Assembly: GCA_016185755.1 (NCBI GenBank)
Contig: JACPMX010000014.1
Coordinates: 117,868-181,867 of the forward strand
Direction of reading: 5' to 3'
Source of the DNA: Candidatus Woesearchaeota archaeon
Lineage (GTDB): Archaea; Nanobdellota; Nanobdellia; Woesearchaeales; GW2011-AR4
Length of the DNA stretch: 64,000 bases
The position numbers and the translations under genes were made by a program. The notes below the pieces were generated by a model, which was not told where the DNA came from, ran no database searches, and saw nothing but the letters and a program-made list of their open reading frames with translations. This document shows positions 45 through 55,400 of the stretch, in pieces (position 1 is the stretch's first letter; each line of letters starts with the position of its first letter).

Positions 45-410
45 ATAGCCTGCCTTAGCATTAAACTAAGCGTCGCTGGAAAAGCCGGTTTGACTCAGCT
101 TCACTGGACTTGCACCGGCCAGGGCTCACCGTTTCACCCATGCTGTAAAAACGTCAATTGGTCAGCTCAATGCCCTCGCAGGCATCTTCGCGAAAATCAT
201 CCTTTGTTACAGCGGTCTCGTTTCTGAGTGGTTGCCTTCTATTGCTGGAACTCACTTGCGTGAGTGGCCGCCTGGGCATTCGCGAAGCAAATGCCACAAA
301 AATGCCAGCCGGTTTCGCGGCTGGGTGGGTGGACTTTCCTCAGCCAATGCATGCGAAACGAAGTTTCGCTCGCTTGCAGCCGGCCGCAGCTAAGTACCAG
401 CCCTGCCTCT
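45..410 (-). ncRNA. rnpB: Putative RNase P RNA, reduced form; ends approximate
   Basis: GC-rich island in an AT-rich genome. On the minus strand, in RNase-P order, it has AGGAAAGTCC (CR-I/P4 5'-like), GGGTGAAACGGTG (CR-II-like), CCGGTGCAAGTCCAG (like the bacterial CCGGAGCAAGGCCA) and AAACCGGCTTTT (CR-V/P4 3'-like). Several hairpins are present, including a GCAA tetraloop. A TTTTATATA box lies about 25 nt upstream (forward 430-438) and a T-rich hairpin follows at the 3' end. The P4 pairing is imperfect (GTCCACCC rather than GTCCGGGC), so confidence is moderate. Confidence 0.4.
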
Positions 411-460
411 GAATAGTATGGAAAGTGTGTATATAAAATTATCGAAATTTTCGGCACAGC

Positions 461-739
461 CTATCTGTTTTTACCCTTTAAAATGGAATCTTTCAGCTGC
501 TTTATCTCGTCAAGCTGCTCAAGAAGGATCCCCTCCTTTATGTCCTCGCCTATTGCAAGGAGAATTATGAAGATGACCATCAAAAGCCAGAGGAAAACTG
601 TCTGCAAAAAGCCCCACGATATCCTGTAGCCTTCCAATGCAAAAACCTTGTTGATGAAGAAATATCCTATAATCAGCACAAGAAACCCAACAACCAGGAG
701 CATCTTTTCAAAGATGCTCGTACGCCTCTTTTTTTCCAT
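461..739 (-). CDS. Small hydrophobic hypothetical protein
   Basis: 92-aa ORF with two predicted TM segments; no recognisable family. Confidence 0.3.
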   Translation of the reverse strand: MEKKRRTSIFEKMLLVVGFLVLIIGYFFINKVFALEGYRISWGFLQTVFLWLLMVIFIILLAIGEDIKEGILLEQLDEIKQLKDSILKGKNR

Positions 740-769: not shown

Positions 770-1894
770 TTATATATTTTTCTTTTTGAATAGCAGGATA
801 TTGAGCGGCTGCTCCCCGCTCCATACTTCCGTTTCCTTTGCAATGTAAAAATTGTTCTTTTCAGCGCTTTTTTTGGCCAGCTCCGGCATCTTGGAAATGA
901 CGGCAAGAGTGCCGTTGCCTTTCAGTATGTAAGCGCTCTGGTAAAAAAACTCATTGTAGATTTTATTAAGGTCAGCGCTTTTTGATACCGGCAGGCTTGT
1001 GGCAATCCTGTCAACGCTTTTTTCCTTGAACTTTATGTCAAGCCATTCCAGCTCAACCCTGCTGAAATTGATGTATTTGTCGACCCCGGCAATCTTTGCG
1101 TTCTTCTTTGAATAGCCGACATACTTGAACAGGTGGTCATAGCTGTATATGCCTGCTTTCGGCTTTTTTATTGCCCTGTCTGCTTTTTTGAAAAATTTTT
1201 CAAAGTCAACGCCTATTTTCAGCCTCAAAAACCCGAACTTTTCTTTCTTGTAGTAATTATGCGGGAATCCGCTTGCATAGAAAGCTGCCTCTATCCCGAT
1301 AACCCCGTCCCTTGAGAAAGGGTCAAGCATCACTTCCTTTTTCCCAAACCCGCTTTCCCTCACCAATGCATAGGCTATGGTTCCCCTCAATGAGTTGGGG
1401 TGGAGGAAAATCTTGTATCCCCTCTTGTTCAGCTCCATTCCTGAAAAATCAATTCCAAAGTGGCATTTGCTGTTTACGATATGGGCCATGAAGATCATTT
1501 CATATTCCTTTAAGTCGATTCTGGTGCCTTTCAGCTTTCTTGCAATGATCCTGTTTGCCTTTGCCTCGACATCAACGCTCTTGAAATTGTGGGTCCCGTG
1601 CCTTATGCACTCGACCCTGAATTTTTTGTGCTTCAGGATCCATTCGTCAAAATGCAGCTTCCCGATGAAATTCTCGAAGCCGCTGAAGAAGTCGTCAAAT
1701 TCAAAGCTGCCAAGCAGGTACATGACCCTGTCCGCTGACTGGCATTTGTAGCATAATAAGCACAACTCCTCAAATTTCTTGGCTTCGAATGAAATGCAGC
1801 AGTCTTCAATCTTGCATCCTGCGCCAATCAGCTCCTTTGCATCCTGCGCCGCTGTTTGCTCCAGCCCCCTTGATGTTATCAAAAGCCCCTTCAT
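770..1894 (-). CDS. THUMP-domain SAM-dependent RNA (guanine-N2) methyltransferase, Trm14/TrmN-like
   Basis: 374 aa; N-terminal THUMP-like region followed by a class-I methyltransferase fold typical of archaeal m2G tRNA methyltransferases. Confidence 0.65.
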   Translation of the reverse strand: MKGLLITSRGLEQTAAQDAKELIGAGCKIEDCCISFEAKKFEELCLLCYKCQSADRVMYLLGSFEFDDFFSGFENFIGKLHFDEWILKHKKFRVECIRHGTHNFKSVDVEAKANRIIARKLKGTRIDLKEYEMIFMAHIVNSKCHFGIDFSGMELNKRGYKIFLHPNSLRGTIAYALVRESGFGKKEVMLDPFSRDGVIGIEAAFYASGFPHNYYKKEKFGFLRLKIGVDFEKFFKKADRAIKKPKAGIYSYDHLFKYVGYSKKNAKIAGVDKYINFSRVELEWLDIKFKEKSVDRIATSLPVSKSADLNKIYNEFFYQSAYILKGNGTLAVISKMPELAKKSAEKNNFYIAKETEVWSGEQPLNILLFKKKNI

Positions 1895-1931: not shown

Positions 1932-2114
1932 TTATTTCTTAAGAAGGGATTTTTTCTTCAGCCCCTTTCTCATTTTTGGGCTCGGCTTCAGCCTTTTGAA
2001 GAACTCAATCTGCCTCAGCCTTTTTTCAGCATCCTCTTTGGAAGTGTAAGTTCCAAATTTCCTTCCGGTCGTTTCAGACAAGACAACATACTTTCCCTTT
2101 ATTTTCTTGATCAT
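1932..2114 (-). CDS. Small basic hypothetical protein
   Basis: 60-aa K/R-rich ORF divergent from the PIN gene. Confidence 0.25.
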   Translation of the reverse strand: MIKKIKGKYVVLSETTGRKFGTYTSKEDAEKRLRQIEFFKRLKPSPKMRKGLKKKSLLKK

Positions 2115-8721: not shown

Positions 8722-10617
8722 GTGGAACAAGCACAATTGCAGGATAACATAAAAAAAGCCGGCATTCTGGACAAGATAGATTCTCCTAAGGACATTAAAC
8801 TTCTCAGCAGAAAGCAGCTCAAAATGCTCGCAAGCGAAATAAGGCAAAGAATCCTGGAAGTAGTCTCAAAGAACGGAGGCCATCTTGGAGGCCCTTTAGG
8901 CGCAGTTGAGCTGACTTTGGCGGTTCATTGCATTTACAATGCCCCCCATGACAAGATAGTCATAGACACAGGCCATCAAAGCTACCCCCACAAGCTGATA
9001 ACAGGAAGAAGGGACAATTTCCATACTTTAAGGCAGTACAAGGGAGTCTGCGGCTTCTGCAATATTGAGGAGTCGGAATACGATGTATTCGGCGCAGGCC
9101 ACGCATCAACTGCAATTTCAGCAGCCTTGGGCATAGCAAAGGCAAGGGACTATAAGAAGGAAAAATACAAGGTAGTCTCAATAATCGGGGACGGGGCATT
9201 GACAGCAGGCCTCGCTTTTGAAGGCTTGAACAACGCAGGCGCATCAAAGACAGACATGCTTATCATACTCAATGACAACAGGATGTCGATTTCTCCAAAT
9301 GTAGGCGCGATATCAAACTATCTGAACAAGATTGTGCTTCATTCAGGCTATTTTGAATTAAGAAAGAAAACTGGAAATTTGCTTAAAAAAATCCCCGGAA
9401 TAGGAAAAGAAGGTGTTGAAAAGCTTAGCAGGGCAGAGGGAAAATTAAGGGTGCTCGGCACAGATGGAATTTTCTTTGAAAGCATGGGATTCCAGTACTT
9501 TGGGCCCATCGATGGGCATAATTTGGATGAATTGATTCCCGCATTGCAGAATGTAAAAAATCTTGAAGGCCCTGTCCTGCTCCATGTAAAGACGGAAAAG
9601 GGAAAAGGCTACTCATTTGCGGAAAAGGACCTTGACAAGTTTCATGGCATGTCGCCCTTTGACCCTGTAAACGGAAGCAAATATGTCACAACAACCAAGA
9701 TGACATGGACTGATGCATTTGCAAACGCATTGATAAGGATTGCGGAAGAAGACGAAAAGATTGTTGCCATAACAGCTGCAATGAAATCAGGCACCGGGCT
9801 GAACAAGTTTGAGAAGCATTTTCCTGAAAGGACGATTGATGTCGGGATTGCAGAGCAGCATGCCGTGACTTTTGCGGCAGGATTGGCAATTGCTGGAATG
9901 AGGCCTGTGTGCGCAATATACTCCACATTTTTGCAGAGGGCATATGACCAAATCATTCATGATGTTTGCCTTCAGAACCTCAATGTAATCTTTGCGCTTG
10001 ACAGGGCTGGCCTAGTAGGAGATGATGGCCCAACCCACAATGGGCCTTTTGACATCGCTTATTTCAGGCCCATACCGAACATAACCATTATGGTTCCAAA
10101 AGACGAGAATGAGCTGCAGCACATGCTTTACACTGCAACTAAAATAAAAGGGCCGAGCGCATTGAGATATCCAAGGGGAAATGGAATCGGCGTTGGCCTT
10201 GATCCTGAATTAAGGAAGCTTGAAGTCGGAAAAGGGGAAATCCTACAGGAAGGAAAAGACCTGCTTATTATAGGAATAGGCCCCATTCTTTACGATGCAA
10301 TGCAGGCAATTGACGAGCTGAAATGCAGCGCAGCAGTAATCAACGCAAGATTTGTCAAGCCTCTTGATGAAAATATGATTTTGAAATATGCGCGAAAGTT
10401 CAGGAATATAATGACCCTTGAGGAAGGGGTTTTGAGCGGAGGGTTTGGCTCTGCTGTTATGGAATTGCTCGAAGGCAGCGGAATAAAATCAAATGTAAAA
10501 AGGATTGGCATTCCCGATAATTTCATCGAGCACGGAAAGCAGGACATACAGAAAAAACTGGCGGGAATTGACAAGGAGAGCGTAAAAATTGCCATTAGCA
10601 GTTTATTGGTCAAATAG
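8722..10617 (+). CDS. dxs: 1-deoxy-D-xylulose-5-phosphate synthase (GTG start)
   Basis: 631 aa; TPP-dependent transketolase-like; GDG...N ThDP motif; first MEP-pathway enzyme. Confidence 0.9.
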   Translation: MEQAQLQDNIKKAGILDKIDSPKDIKLLSRKQLKMLASEIRQRILEVVSKNGGHLGGPLGAVELTLAVHCIYNAPHDKIVIDTGHQSYPHKLITGRRDNFHTLRQYKGVCGFCNIEESEYDVFGAGHASTAISAALGIAKARDYKKEKYKVVSIIGDGALTAGLAFEGLNNAGASKTDMLIILNDNRMSISPNVGAISNYLNKIVLHSGYFELRKKTGNLLKKIPGIGKEGVEKLSRAEGKLRVLGTDGIFFESMGFQYFGPIDGHNLDELIPALQNVKNLEGPVLLHVKTEKGKGYSFAEKDLDKFHGMSPFDPVNGSKYVTTTKMTWTDAFANALIRIAEEDEKIVAITAAMKSGTGLNKFEKHFPERTIDVGIAEQHAVTFAAGLAIAGMRPVCAIYSTFLQRAYDQIIHDVCLQNLNVIFALDRAGLVGDDGPTHNGPFDIAYFRPIPNITIMVPKDENELQHMLYTATKIKGPSALRYPRGNGIGVGLDPELRKLEVGKGEILQEGKDLLIIGIGPILYDAMQAIDELKCSAAVINARFVKPLDENMILKYARKFRNIMTLEEGVLSGGFGSAVMELLEGSGIKSNVKRIGIPDNFIEHGKQDIQKKLAGIDKESVKIAISSLLVK

Positions 10618-19028: not shown

Positions 19029-19319
19029 TTACTTTGCATCCTCAATTCGTATAATGTGGTAGCCGAACTGCGTCTTTACAGGACCTAGTATGGCTCCCTT
19101 GCTGCCGTTAAAGCATGCATTCTCAAACTCCCTGACCATTTGGCCTTTCCTGAACCATCCCAAATTCCCTCCTTTTTTCCGGGAAGGGCACAATGATTTT
19201 TCCATGGCCACATCTTCAAATTTCTTTCCATGGGTTACATCATAGAGCGCCACGTTGGCATCCTGCTCTGTCTTCAGCAGAATATGCGATGCATTCACTT
19301 GGCTTGGCATTTTTGACAT
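19029..19319 (-). CDS. Parvulin-type peptidyl-prolyl cis-trans isomerase (PpiC)
   Basis: 97 aa from MSKMPSQVNASHILL...GGNLGWFRKGQMV...GYHIIRIE. The supplied 150-aa ORF runs upstream through a tRNA gene and is over-extended. Confidence 0.75.
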   Translation of the reverse strand: MSKMPSQVNASHILLKTEQDANVALYDVTHGKKFEDVAMEKSLCPSRKKGGNLGWFRKGQMVREFENACFNGSKGAILGPVKTQFGYHIIRIEDAK

Positions 19320-19324
19320 TCCTC

Positions 19325-19355
19325 GGAACGATGAAAAATAGCCCCGGGCAGATTC
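19325..19355 (-). repeat. 31-bp direct repeat duplicating the 3' end plus trailer of tRNA-Gln
   Basis: ggaacgatgaaaaatagccccgggcagattc at 19325-19355 is identical to 19413-19443, which spans the tRNA-Gln T-arm/acceptor 3' strand and 14 nt of trailer. Confidence 0.7.
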
Positions 19356-19426
19356 CCACCAGCCTTTTAGGAAAAGCCTGGGGAAAACTATGCAATGTGG
19401 CATAAATGCCACGGAACGATGAAAAA

Positions 19427-19515
19427 TAGCCCCGGGCAGATTCGAACTGCCGTCAGAGCCTTTCCATTGCACTGCAACCAAAGGGCCCTATGCTTGACCG
19501 CTACACCACGGGGCT
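19427..19515 (-). tRNA. tRNA-Gln(UUG) with 16-nt canonical (37/38) intron
   Basis: Minus-strand acceptor AGCCCCG/CGGGGCT; anticodon stem-loop GGGCC-CUUUGG[intron TTGCAGTGCAATGGAA]A-GGCTC; T arm GGCAG-TTCGAAT-CTGCC; discriminator A. Confidence 0.6.
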
Positions 19516-36534: not shown

Positions 36535-36640
36535 CGCGCCGGGGAGGATTCGAATTCGGGATGAAAGAGCAGTTACTCGATCATGCCCCCGGCCTAGAGG
36601 TTAGGAACCTCTCGCTCTATCCAAGCTGAGCTACCGGCGC
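36535..36640 (-). tRNA. tRNA-Arg(CCU) with ~31-nt non-canonical intron in the T-arm
   Basis: Minus-strand acceptor GCGCCGG/CCGGCGC; D arm GCTC/GAGC; anticodon stem-loop AGAGG-TTCCTAA-CCTCT. T stem GGGGG/CCTCC is interrupted by CATGATCGAGTAACTGCTCTTTCATCCCGAA before TTCGAAT; discriminator G. Confidence 0.6.
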
Positions 36641-53696: not shown

Positions 53697-54008
53697 ATGC
53701 CAAGAAAATACAGTAAAAAGCCCGCGCAGCAGGAAAGGATTGCAAAGAACAGGATAAAATTCCTGTTCCAGCATGCCAAGGAAGTCTTTAAGGAAGACAG
53801 CAAGCTTGCCGACAAATACGTGAAGCTTGCAAGAAGGATAGCGATGAAATACAAGATAAGGCTTCCTTCTTCTCTCAAGAAAAAATTCTGCAAGCACTGC
53901 CACAGATACCTTGTGCCTGGTGTAAATTCAAGGGTCAGGCTGCACAAGCACAGGCTGATTTACTATTGCATGAGCTGCAGGCATTATACAAGATATCCTG
54001 TTAAGTAA
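53697..54008 (+). CDS. rnp4: RNase P protein component Rpp21 (Rpr2)
   Basis: 103 aa; CKHC...CMSC zinc ribbon and basic N-terminal helices. Confidence 0.75.
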   Translation: MPRKYSKKPAQQERIAKNRIKFLFQHAKEVFKEDSKLADKYVKLARRIAMKYKIRLPSSLKKKFCKHCHRYLVPGVNSRVRLHKHRLIYYCMSCRHYTRYPVK

Positions 54009-55133: not shown

Positions 55134-55400
55134 ATGTCAAGCTACGACCTGGAGCTTTCCAAAGTAATCGAAAGAATCAATAAAGATAATGCCAAGCTAG
55201 TCTGCATCCAGCTGCCTGATGGATTAAAGCCAAGGGCAAATGAGATACAGCATGCCATAGAGGAAAATACAGATGCAAATGCAGTCATTTGGATGGGATC
55301 CTGCTTCGGGGCTTGCGATGTACCGCTGCAGGTTGAAAGGCTTGGCGTTGATTTGCTCATCCAGTGGGGCCATTCCACCTGGCGCGGAACGTGGTATTAA
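55134..55400 (+). pseudogene. dph2: N-terminal fragment (88 aa) of the diphthamide synthesis radical-SAM enzyme Dph2
   Basis: AKLVCIQLPDGLK...GSCFGACDVPLQVERLGVDLLIQWGHS matches the Dph2 N-terminus, then terminates. About 250 aa are missing, and a Nudix gene starts 33 nt downstream. Confidence 0.55.

Follow-up and report, generated by a model that had tools for sequence, protein, structure and literature searches.

RNase P RNA is the ribozyme that trims the 5′ ends of tRNAs. Notable cases include its minimal forms, type P/T, and Nanoarchaeum, which has lost RNase P completely. Type P (T) RNAs occur in Pyrobaculum and related Thermoproteaceae, and they reportedly lack most of the specificity domain and are about 200 nt long. 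Between the two larger classes, type A (RF00373; the RNase P RNAs of Pyrococcus and Methanothermobacter) and type M (Methanococcales and Archaeoglobus), helix P19 is a dividing feature, found in archaeal type A but not in type M, which is also devoid of P8, P6, P16 and P17 (PMC2858038 Table 3). In the type M RNA of M. jannaschii, resolved by cryo-EM, P15 ends in a small terminal loop without the 3′-RCCA recognition element (PMC6565675). Daniels et al. 2019 (PMC6380272) found HARP in none of the DPANN genomes that they examined and describe the RNP form as near-universal across Archaea, which would fit an essential RNA-based enzyme in the DPANN archaeon studied here.

We analyzed a 64,000-nt stretch of DNA (hereafter the window) from Candidatus Woesearchaeota, at the beginning of which a sequence-only reading had placed a strongly reduced RNase P RNA, of about the size of types M and T or smaller still, and lacking part of its 3′ domain. 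Our results point instead to an ordinary single-copy type-A-like RNase P RNA gene that is clipped by the window edge inside P19, to which we assign a probability of about 0.93. The apparent extreme reduction in a DPANN archaeon would accordingly be corrected to a full-size gene cut by the edge of the sequence, and a false "minimal" call would mislead in view of the type P/T and Nanoarchaeum cases. The novelty of the locus is low, as it is a further member of the type-A-like archaeal family.

Identity and extent of the locus

The window was scanned against all 4227 Rfam families with permissive filters. The sole significant non-tRNA match was RF00373 (RNaseP_arch), at positions 367-37 of the minus strand, with 71.1 bits and an E-value of 1.2e-19 locally. 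The next Rfam matches had E = 1.3 and 4.9, and only one RNase P RNA locus was found in the window. With default Rfam gathering thresholds, the scan of the window returned only a tRNA. The Infernal check put forward in the sequence-only reading thus had a divided outcome, the score falling below the gathering score of 84 and yet reaching E = 1.1e-17 over the whole window, with no better-matching family. The sub-threshold score is also the one point in favor of a different structured RNA, SRP RNA or another ncRNA, that shares RNase P-like boxes. Against it stand the permissive scan of 4227 families, which gave only RNaseP_arch at the locus, and the syntenic relatives described below, all four of which passed the RNaseP_arch threshold when scored; we regard the chance of such an RNA as negligible.

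The relatives were recognized through the neighboring gene. The THUMP/UPF0020 methyltransferase encoded at 770-1894 (minus strand) was 100% identical to HYX08_05815 of a Candidatus Woesearchaeota archaeon, and hundreds of its relatives showed 62-76% identity. The gene order THUMP methyltransferase, 91-92 aa protein, a gap of 400-600 nt without a called gene, Sec61-beta and NAC was conserved in every relative with enough flanking DNA, and the RNA occupies the gap. In the four relatives scored, RF00373 matched within the gap with 96.0-112.4 bits. A further 39 loci came from metagenomes scanned with an invariant 26-mer, and 28 distinct complete syntenic RNAs of 324-485 nt were obtained from Woesearchaeota genomes and metagenomes. 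An nhmmer profile was built from these 28 relatives, with the window sequence excluded, and it matched window positions 407-27 (envelope to 14) with 272 bits and E = 5.6e-83. The earlier assignment of an RNase P RNA to the minus strand, behind a TATA promoter, was therefore borne out by RF00373, by the family profile and by a TATA box at 438-430, and judged from sequence a genuine archaeal gene for this RNA lies at the locus. The GC-rich character of the block was also confirmed (52.8% G+C in the RNA block against 42.2% in the whole window). In the same neighborhood, a 60-aa ORF (1932-2114, minus strand) and a 92-aa membrane-protein-like ORF (461-739, minus strand) flank the THUMP gene; their position is conserved across relatives, and neither has a Pfam match.

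The extent of the RNA differs from the interval 410-45 given earlier. Within the window it spans positions 407 to 1, with its 5′ end at about 407, and it runs off position 1 within the P19 hairpin. The whole RNA is predicted to be roughly 445 nt long, of which about 35-40 nt would lie outside the window. For P3, J5/7 and the 3′ end, the RF00373 alignment of the window copy proved unreliable, as the global alignment was forced onto a cut sequence and the upstream 40 nt were ignored; these regions were taken from a family alignment of 29 sequences (A1) instead.

Upstream of the RNA, the promoter ATAATTTTATATA (430-442, minus strand) includes the TATA box TTTTATATA about 23 nt from the RNA 5′ end, and transcription of the minus strand would start from it at around position 407. 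The element CAGATAATTTTATATA stands at a constant distance from GGCAGGG in all relatives. In the relatives, a longer promoter block, (A)ACAGATAATTTTATATA, is nearly invariant at about 23 nt upstream of the RNA 5′ end (window equivalent 430-447), although the flanking proteins of these relatives are only 62-76% identical; the window copy shares only ATAATTTTATATA (442-430) of this block. In most relatives the block overlaps or adjoins the stop codon of the upstream 92-aa gene.

The 3′ end of the RNA and the window edge

The four motifs on which the sequence-only reading was based do occur in the order described on the minus strand: AGGAAAGTCC at 340-331, GGGTGAAACGGTG at 139-127, CCGGTGCAAGTCCAG at 118-104 and AAACCGGCTTTT at 91-80. 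Two of them had been given the wrong label. The box GGGTGAAACGG, called CR-II-like, is CR-III, and CR-II is CAGAAACGA at 226-218. The box AAACCGGCUUUU (AAACCGGCTTTT at 91-80), called CR-V-like, belongs to a P16-like hairpin, of which it forms the loop and the 3′ strand.

The 3′ ends of the relatives were then compared with that of the window copy. In every relative, the P2 3′ strand AAUGCUAAG is followed by a 31-68 nt hairpin (P19, in J2/4) and then by a constant 32-nt tail. The base stem of P19, CAGGC/GCCUG, is invariant in the relatives, and the tail reads CCUGACAA(A/U)AGG(Y)GGCUUA(Y)UC...CCCUGCC, comprising J19/4 with CR-V and the P4 3′ strand and then the P1 3′ strand. In the 28 relatives, CR-V with the P4 3′ strand is GGGCCUGACAAAAGG(Y)GGCUUA, downstream of the closed P19 hairpin. 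All 28 extend past the point where the window stops, with GGGCCUGACAA(A/U)AGGYGGCUUA...CCCUGCC (also given as GGGCCUGACAA(A/U)AGGUGGCUUA...CCCUGCC). Over its whole length the window copy can be aligned with the family, as far as column 703 of 740, and it holds 52 nt of the P19 insert before position 1 is reached; correspondingly, positions 1-318 of the 357 in the family profile were matched by the window and 319-357 were unmatched. The P4 3′ strand had been placed about 25 nt after the GCAAG box, with no more distal helices. The 28 relatives place this strand, GG(Y)GGCUU, after P19 and beyond the window edge, and P19 itself is present and reaches that edge.

Next, two relatives were cut at the equivalent point and rescored with RF00373. 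The score of L002 fell from 112.4 to 89.6 bits and that of L007 from 103.9 to 81.5 bits, the latter now below the gathering score. The loss was about 22.5 bits per cut relative (n = 2), and the same amount added to the 71.1 bits of the window copy gives about 93. The two cut relatives reproduce the shortfall, which indicated that the sub-threshold score of the window copy is due to the window-edge cut. Likewise, the 3′ domain appears truncated because the window ends within P19; the reading of a truncated 3′ domain arose from the window edge and from the wrong assignment of two conserved boxes. More generally, a covariance-model match at a sequence end may be forced into a spurious full-length alignment, drop below threshold and mimic the loss of a domain.

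Covariation was assessed in alignment A1 (29 sequences) by pair counts over P1, P2, P4 and both P19 stems, with partners slid by 1-3 columns as controls. The results showed that 98.7% of the cells were paired in the tested helices, against 24-47% in the slid controls. Pairing was complete in P2, whose pair is invariant in the 29 sequences, and in the P19 inner stem, where compensatory changes were seen at 4 of 5 pairs; in P1, 95.6% of the cells were paired. At the variable pair of P4, the 28 relatives have A-U (14), G-C (11) or G-U (3), with zero mismatches. The sequence-only reading had pointed to GUCCACC in place of GUCCGGG in the P4 5′ strand. That reading of the letters was correct, whereas the oddity seen in it was not, since the P4 covariation explains GUCCACC as a normal co-varying variant of the family; the A of the window copy predicts a U partner in the unread 3′ strand.

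These data bear on the proposal that the RNA is strongly reduced, at or below the size of types M and T, with AAACCGGCUUUU as the P4 3′ strand and without P15-P16 or distal helices. It draws on a superficial resemblance of CCGGCUUUU to the CR-V core CGGCUUA and on the Rfam score below the gathering threshold, but the score deficit is matched in relatives cut at the equivalent point, and most relatives either lack the hairpin around AAACCGGCUUUU or have a different one (an element of 10-51 nt). Moreover, AAACCGGCUUUU and GUCCACC give A-C and C-C mismatches and do not pair, whereas the family partner GG(Y)GGCUU downstream of P19 shows perfect covariation. A full S-domain (P7-P12, CR-II and CR-III) and a P15/16 element are also present, unlike in types P/T and M. 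We therefore consider a reduced RNA extremely unlikely.

A gene truly broken in its source, by a contig end or by a rearrangement that left a 3′-truncated pseudogene, would likewise lack its 3′ end in the window. However, conservation extends to the very last base of the intact fragment, which scores 272 bits against the family profile and is the sole RNase P RNA locus in the window; HARP has not been found in DPANN (PMC6380272), and RNase P RNA is essential wherever HARP is absent. Furthermore, the window does not encode the NAC protein P0134 (best tblastn E = 3.9), which putatively comes from the source contig; wherever a relative has downstream sequence, the RNA is followed by a NAC gene, and P0134 shares 70-83% identity with these. 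Its absence from the window and its match to these genes suggested that the source contig very probably continues past position 1. We consider a broken gene very unlikely and an intact gene clipped by the window edge the preferred reading. Beyond position 1, this gene is predicted to continue with the P19 closing strand, J19/4 with CR-V, the P4 3′ strand GGUGGCUU and the P1 3′ strand CCAGCCCUGCC. A metagenome scan gave no match to the window-specific P19 apex, and in a scan of the genome collection only the relative L023 matched the predicted 3′ end with a compensatory P1.

Secondary structure and comparison with the known types

The elements of the window copy were mapped on the minus strand by constrained folding and from the alignments. 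At the 5′ end, the P1 5′ strand GGCAGGGCUGG (397-407) corresponds to the strand that pairs with the 3′-terminal ...CCCUGCC in relatives, its own partner lying beyond position 1, whereas P2 is complete in the window, with CUUAGC (389-394) pairing with GCUAAG at 59-54. An extended P3 stem-loop of 46 nt follows (342-387), with the apical hairpin GCGAAAC-UUC-GUUUCGC in the constrained fold; similar P3 extensions were found in L027, L039 and L048. CR-I (GAGGAAAGUCC) and the P4 5′ strand together form GAGGAAAGUCCACC (328-341), which fits the RF00373 consensus and is invariant in the family. The segment 270-327 contains the P5 5′ strand CACC (327-324) and two lineage-specific J5/7 hairpins at 324-305 and 295-275, the first of which co-varies (CCAGCCG/CGGCUGG in the window, CAACCG/CGGUUG in L027).

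The S-domain is complete at 269-125. Its segment 237-269 holds the P7 5′ strand GGCCA (269-265), P8 with CUCAC-GCAA-GUGAG (264-251) and P9 (250-237), in which the window copy has one C-A mismatch. The P10/11 5′ strand and CR-II lie at 214-236, and CR-II (CAGAAACGA), which does not vary within the family, is aligned with ACAGAAACGA of the RF00373 consensus. P12 (142-213) carries GGAUGAU (202-196) and GCUGACC (166-160), a C/D-like K-turn signature that aligns to the conserved GAuGAU...uGA of the RF00373 consensus. CR-III, AUGGGUGAAACGGUGAG (125-141), is aligned to UGAAACGG of RF00373 and is invariant in the family, and GGGUGAAACGG at 139-129 aligns to the consensus. The P7 3′ strand UGGCC, the P5 3′ strand GGUG and J5/15 (CAAG) follow at 109-121. 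P7 co-varies by eye in A1 as RGCCA/UGGCY, with GGCCA/UGGCC in the window copy.

The sequence-only reading had left no room for P15-P16, but a 36-nt P15/16 element is present at 108-73. Within it, P15 (GUC/GAC) leads through a 4x4 internal loop (CAGU/CAGC) into a P16-like hairpin that GAA/UUC closes, the whole sequence being GUC-CAGU-GAAGCUG-AGUCAAAC-CGGCUUUUC-CAGC-GAC. RNAalifold on a MAFFT alignment of the P15/16 segments returned zero pairs, hairpins of differing length having been misaligned, and individual folds were used in its place; in these, 12 of 12 long-form relatives gave one architecture with unrelated stem sequences. A canonical K-turn needs GA on the non-bulged strand. One in the P15 internal loop was rejected, as the non-bulged strand reads AG. 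The loop also has no GGU-type motif for pairing with the 3′-CCA. J5/7 hairpin 1 (316-308) and the P16-like hairpin (91-83) share a direct repeat of 9 nt, AAACCGGCU, on the minus strand. A P6-type pseudoknot of J5/7 with UUCCAG or CGGCU of P15/16 was considered and set aside, given that in L027, a relative without P16, the J5/7 hairpin shows local covariation; such a pseudoknot is further disfavored by the minimal members of the family, which hold only AUAAAAG in J5/7. No evidence of P6/P17 was identified in the window copy or in the Woesearchaeal relatives.

Downstream of P15/16, J15/2 (CGCUUAGUUUAAU, 72-60) and the P2 3′ strand GCUAAG (59-54) make up the segment 54-72, which is invariant in 29 of 29 sequences. 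The P19 hairpin in J2/4 occupies positions 1-52 and is cut by the window edge. It begins with the 5′ strand of the base stem, CAGGC (52-48), and contains the inner stem GCAAUU/AAUUGC (43-38 and 10-5) and an apical hairpin, AAAAACGC-AAA-GCGUUUUU (35-17).

On these sequence features, the window RNA would be classed as a type-A-like archaeal RNase P RNA, neither type M nor minimal type P/T. As in type A, CR-I, CR-II, CR-III and J5/15 align to the consensus, helices P1-P5 (P1 and P4 by their 5′ strands), P7-P12, P15 with a distal hairpin, and P19 are found together with K-turn-like motifs in P12, and an archaeal TATA promoter and an Rpp21 gene are present. It differs from type A in having no identifiable P6/P17 pseudoknot or GGU-type CCA-pairing motif in P15, in its lineage-specific J5/7 hairpins, extended P3 and long P19, and in its P4, GUCCACC/GGUGGC (3′ strand predicted), against the commoner GUCCCCC. 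The RNA is not type M because P8 (264-251), a P16-like hairpin (within 108-73) and P19 (52-1) are present; the protein set would be the same as in type M. About half of the Woesearchaeal relatives, the window copy not being one of them, have a mini-P15 of 10-14 nt that resembles the short type M P15 without a CCA-binding loop. With type P/T, it shares an RNase P RNA with a conserved catalytic core, but it does not belong to that minimal class because the full S-domain is present, and its predicted length is about 445 nt. The size claim of the sequence-only reading thus does not hold, since P8, P9, P12, P15/16 and P19 are all there and the relatives measure 324-485 nt.

Across the Woesearchaeal RNase P RNAs (L001-L062), expansion hairpins are seen in P3, J5/7, P12 and P19. 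In the family, P1-P3 varies in length from 34 to 148 nt, the distance from CR-I to CR-II from 67 to 206 nt and the P15/16 element from 10 to 51 nt, the 36 nt of the window copy being in the upper half of that range. P15/16 takes two forms, either a mini-hairpin of 10-14 nt or P15 with a 4x4 loop (CNGY/CAGY) and, beyond it, a hairpin with GAA/UUC as its closing pairs. This length variation and the two P15 forms may be of modest interest to RNase P specialists. P8, P9 and P19 are kept as in type A, no P6/P17 pseudoknot and no GGU CCA-binding loop were seen, P15 has two forms, and the expansion hairpins are hypervariable, which raises the tentative and on balance doubtful idea that the Woesearchaeal RNase P RNAs, the window copy included, form a distinct A/M-mosaic structural subtype. 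A protein or a substrate could dock, in a lineage-specific manner, on the conserved 4x4 loop of P15.

Protein partners and other features of the window

The Rpp21 gene cited in the sequence-only reading was confirmed at 53697-54008 (plus strand), where the product matched Pfam PF04032 (Rpr2) with 71.3 bits against a cut-off of 29.3. For the other subunits that it had listed for checking, the outcome was different: Pop5, Rpp29, Rpp30 and L7Ae were not found among the 50 window ORFs in the Pfam scans, which is no surprise with only 64 kb of the genome sampled.

By analogy with family biochemistry (PMC6565675), the RNA would assemble with (Pop5-Rpp30)2, Rpp29-Rpp21 and L7Ae. In the type-A-like architecture of the RNA, the catalytic domain comprises P1, P2, the extended P3, P4, P5, P15 with its internal loop and P16-like hairpin, and P19, and P7, P8, P9, P10/11 and P12 with its K-turn-like motifs form the specificity domain. 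The P4 pseudoknot of CR-I, CR-IV and CR-V would be the active site, the CR-II/CR-III T-loop module flanking P12 would bind the tRNA elbow, and L7Ae would bind the P12 K-turn (PMC6565675). The holoenzyme would then remove the 5′ leaders of pre-tRNAs, as in the same family biochemistry.

Several other features of the window were recorded. A tRNA at 36535-36640 (minus strand; 42.4 bits) was not called by ARAGORN and has a 38-nt insertion in the T-arm region of the Rfam alignment, which is probably a non-canonical archaeal intron. A second tRNA, of 89 nt, at 19427-19515 (minus strand) scored 46.6 bits, above the gathering score of 29, and was found only with permissive Rfam filters. ARAGORN labeled it tRNA-??? 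with a 4-nt anticodon, 'ggtt', suggesting that it probably contains an intron, and it overlaps the over-called N-terminus of a PPIase ORF (19029-19481).

Archaea normally make isoprenoids via the mevalonate pathway, and for this reason a 631-aa ORF at 8722-10617 (plus strand) with DXP-synthase architecture (Pfam DXP_synthase_N, 383 bits, plus transketolase domains) was unexpected; it may have been horizontally acquired or have a different role. Finally, an 88-aa ORF at 55134-55400 (plus strand), directly followed by a NUDIX ORF, matched only the first 56 of the 302 positions of Pfam Diphthamide_syn and may be a gene fragment or part of a split gene.
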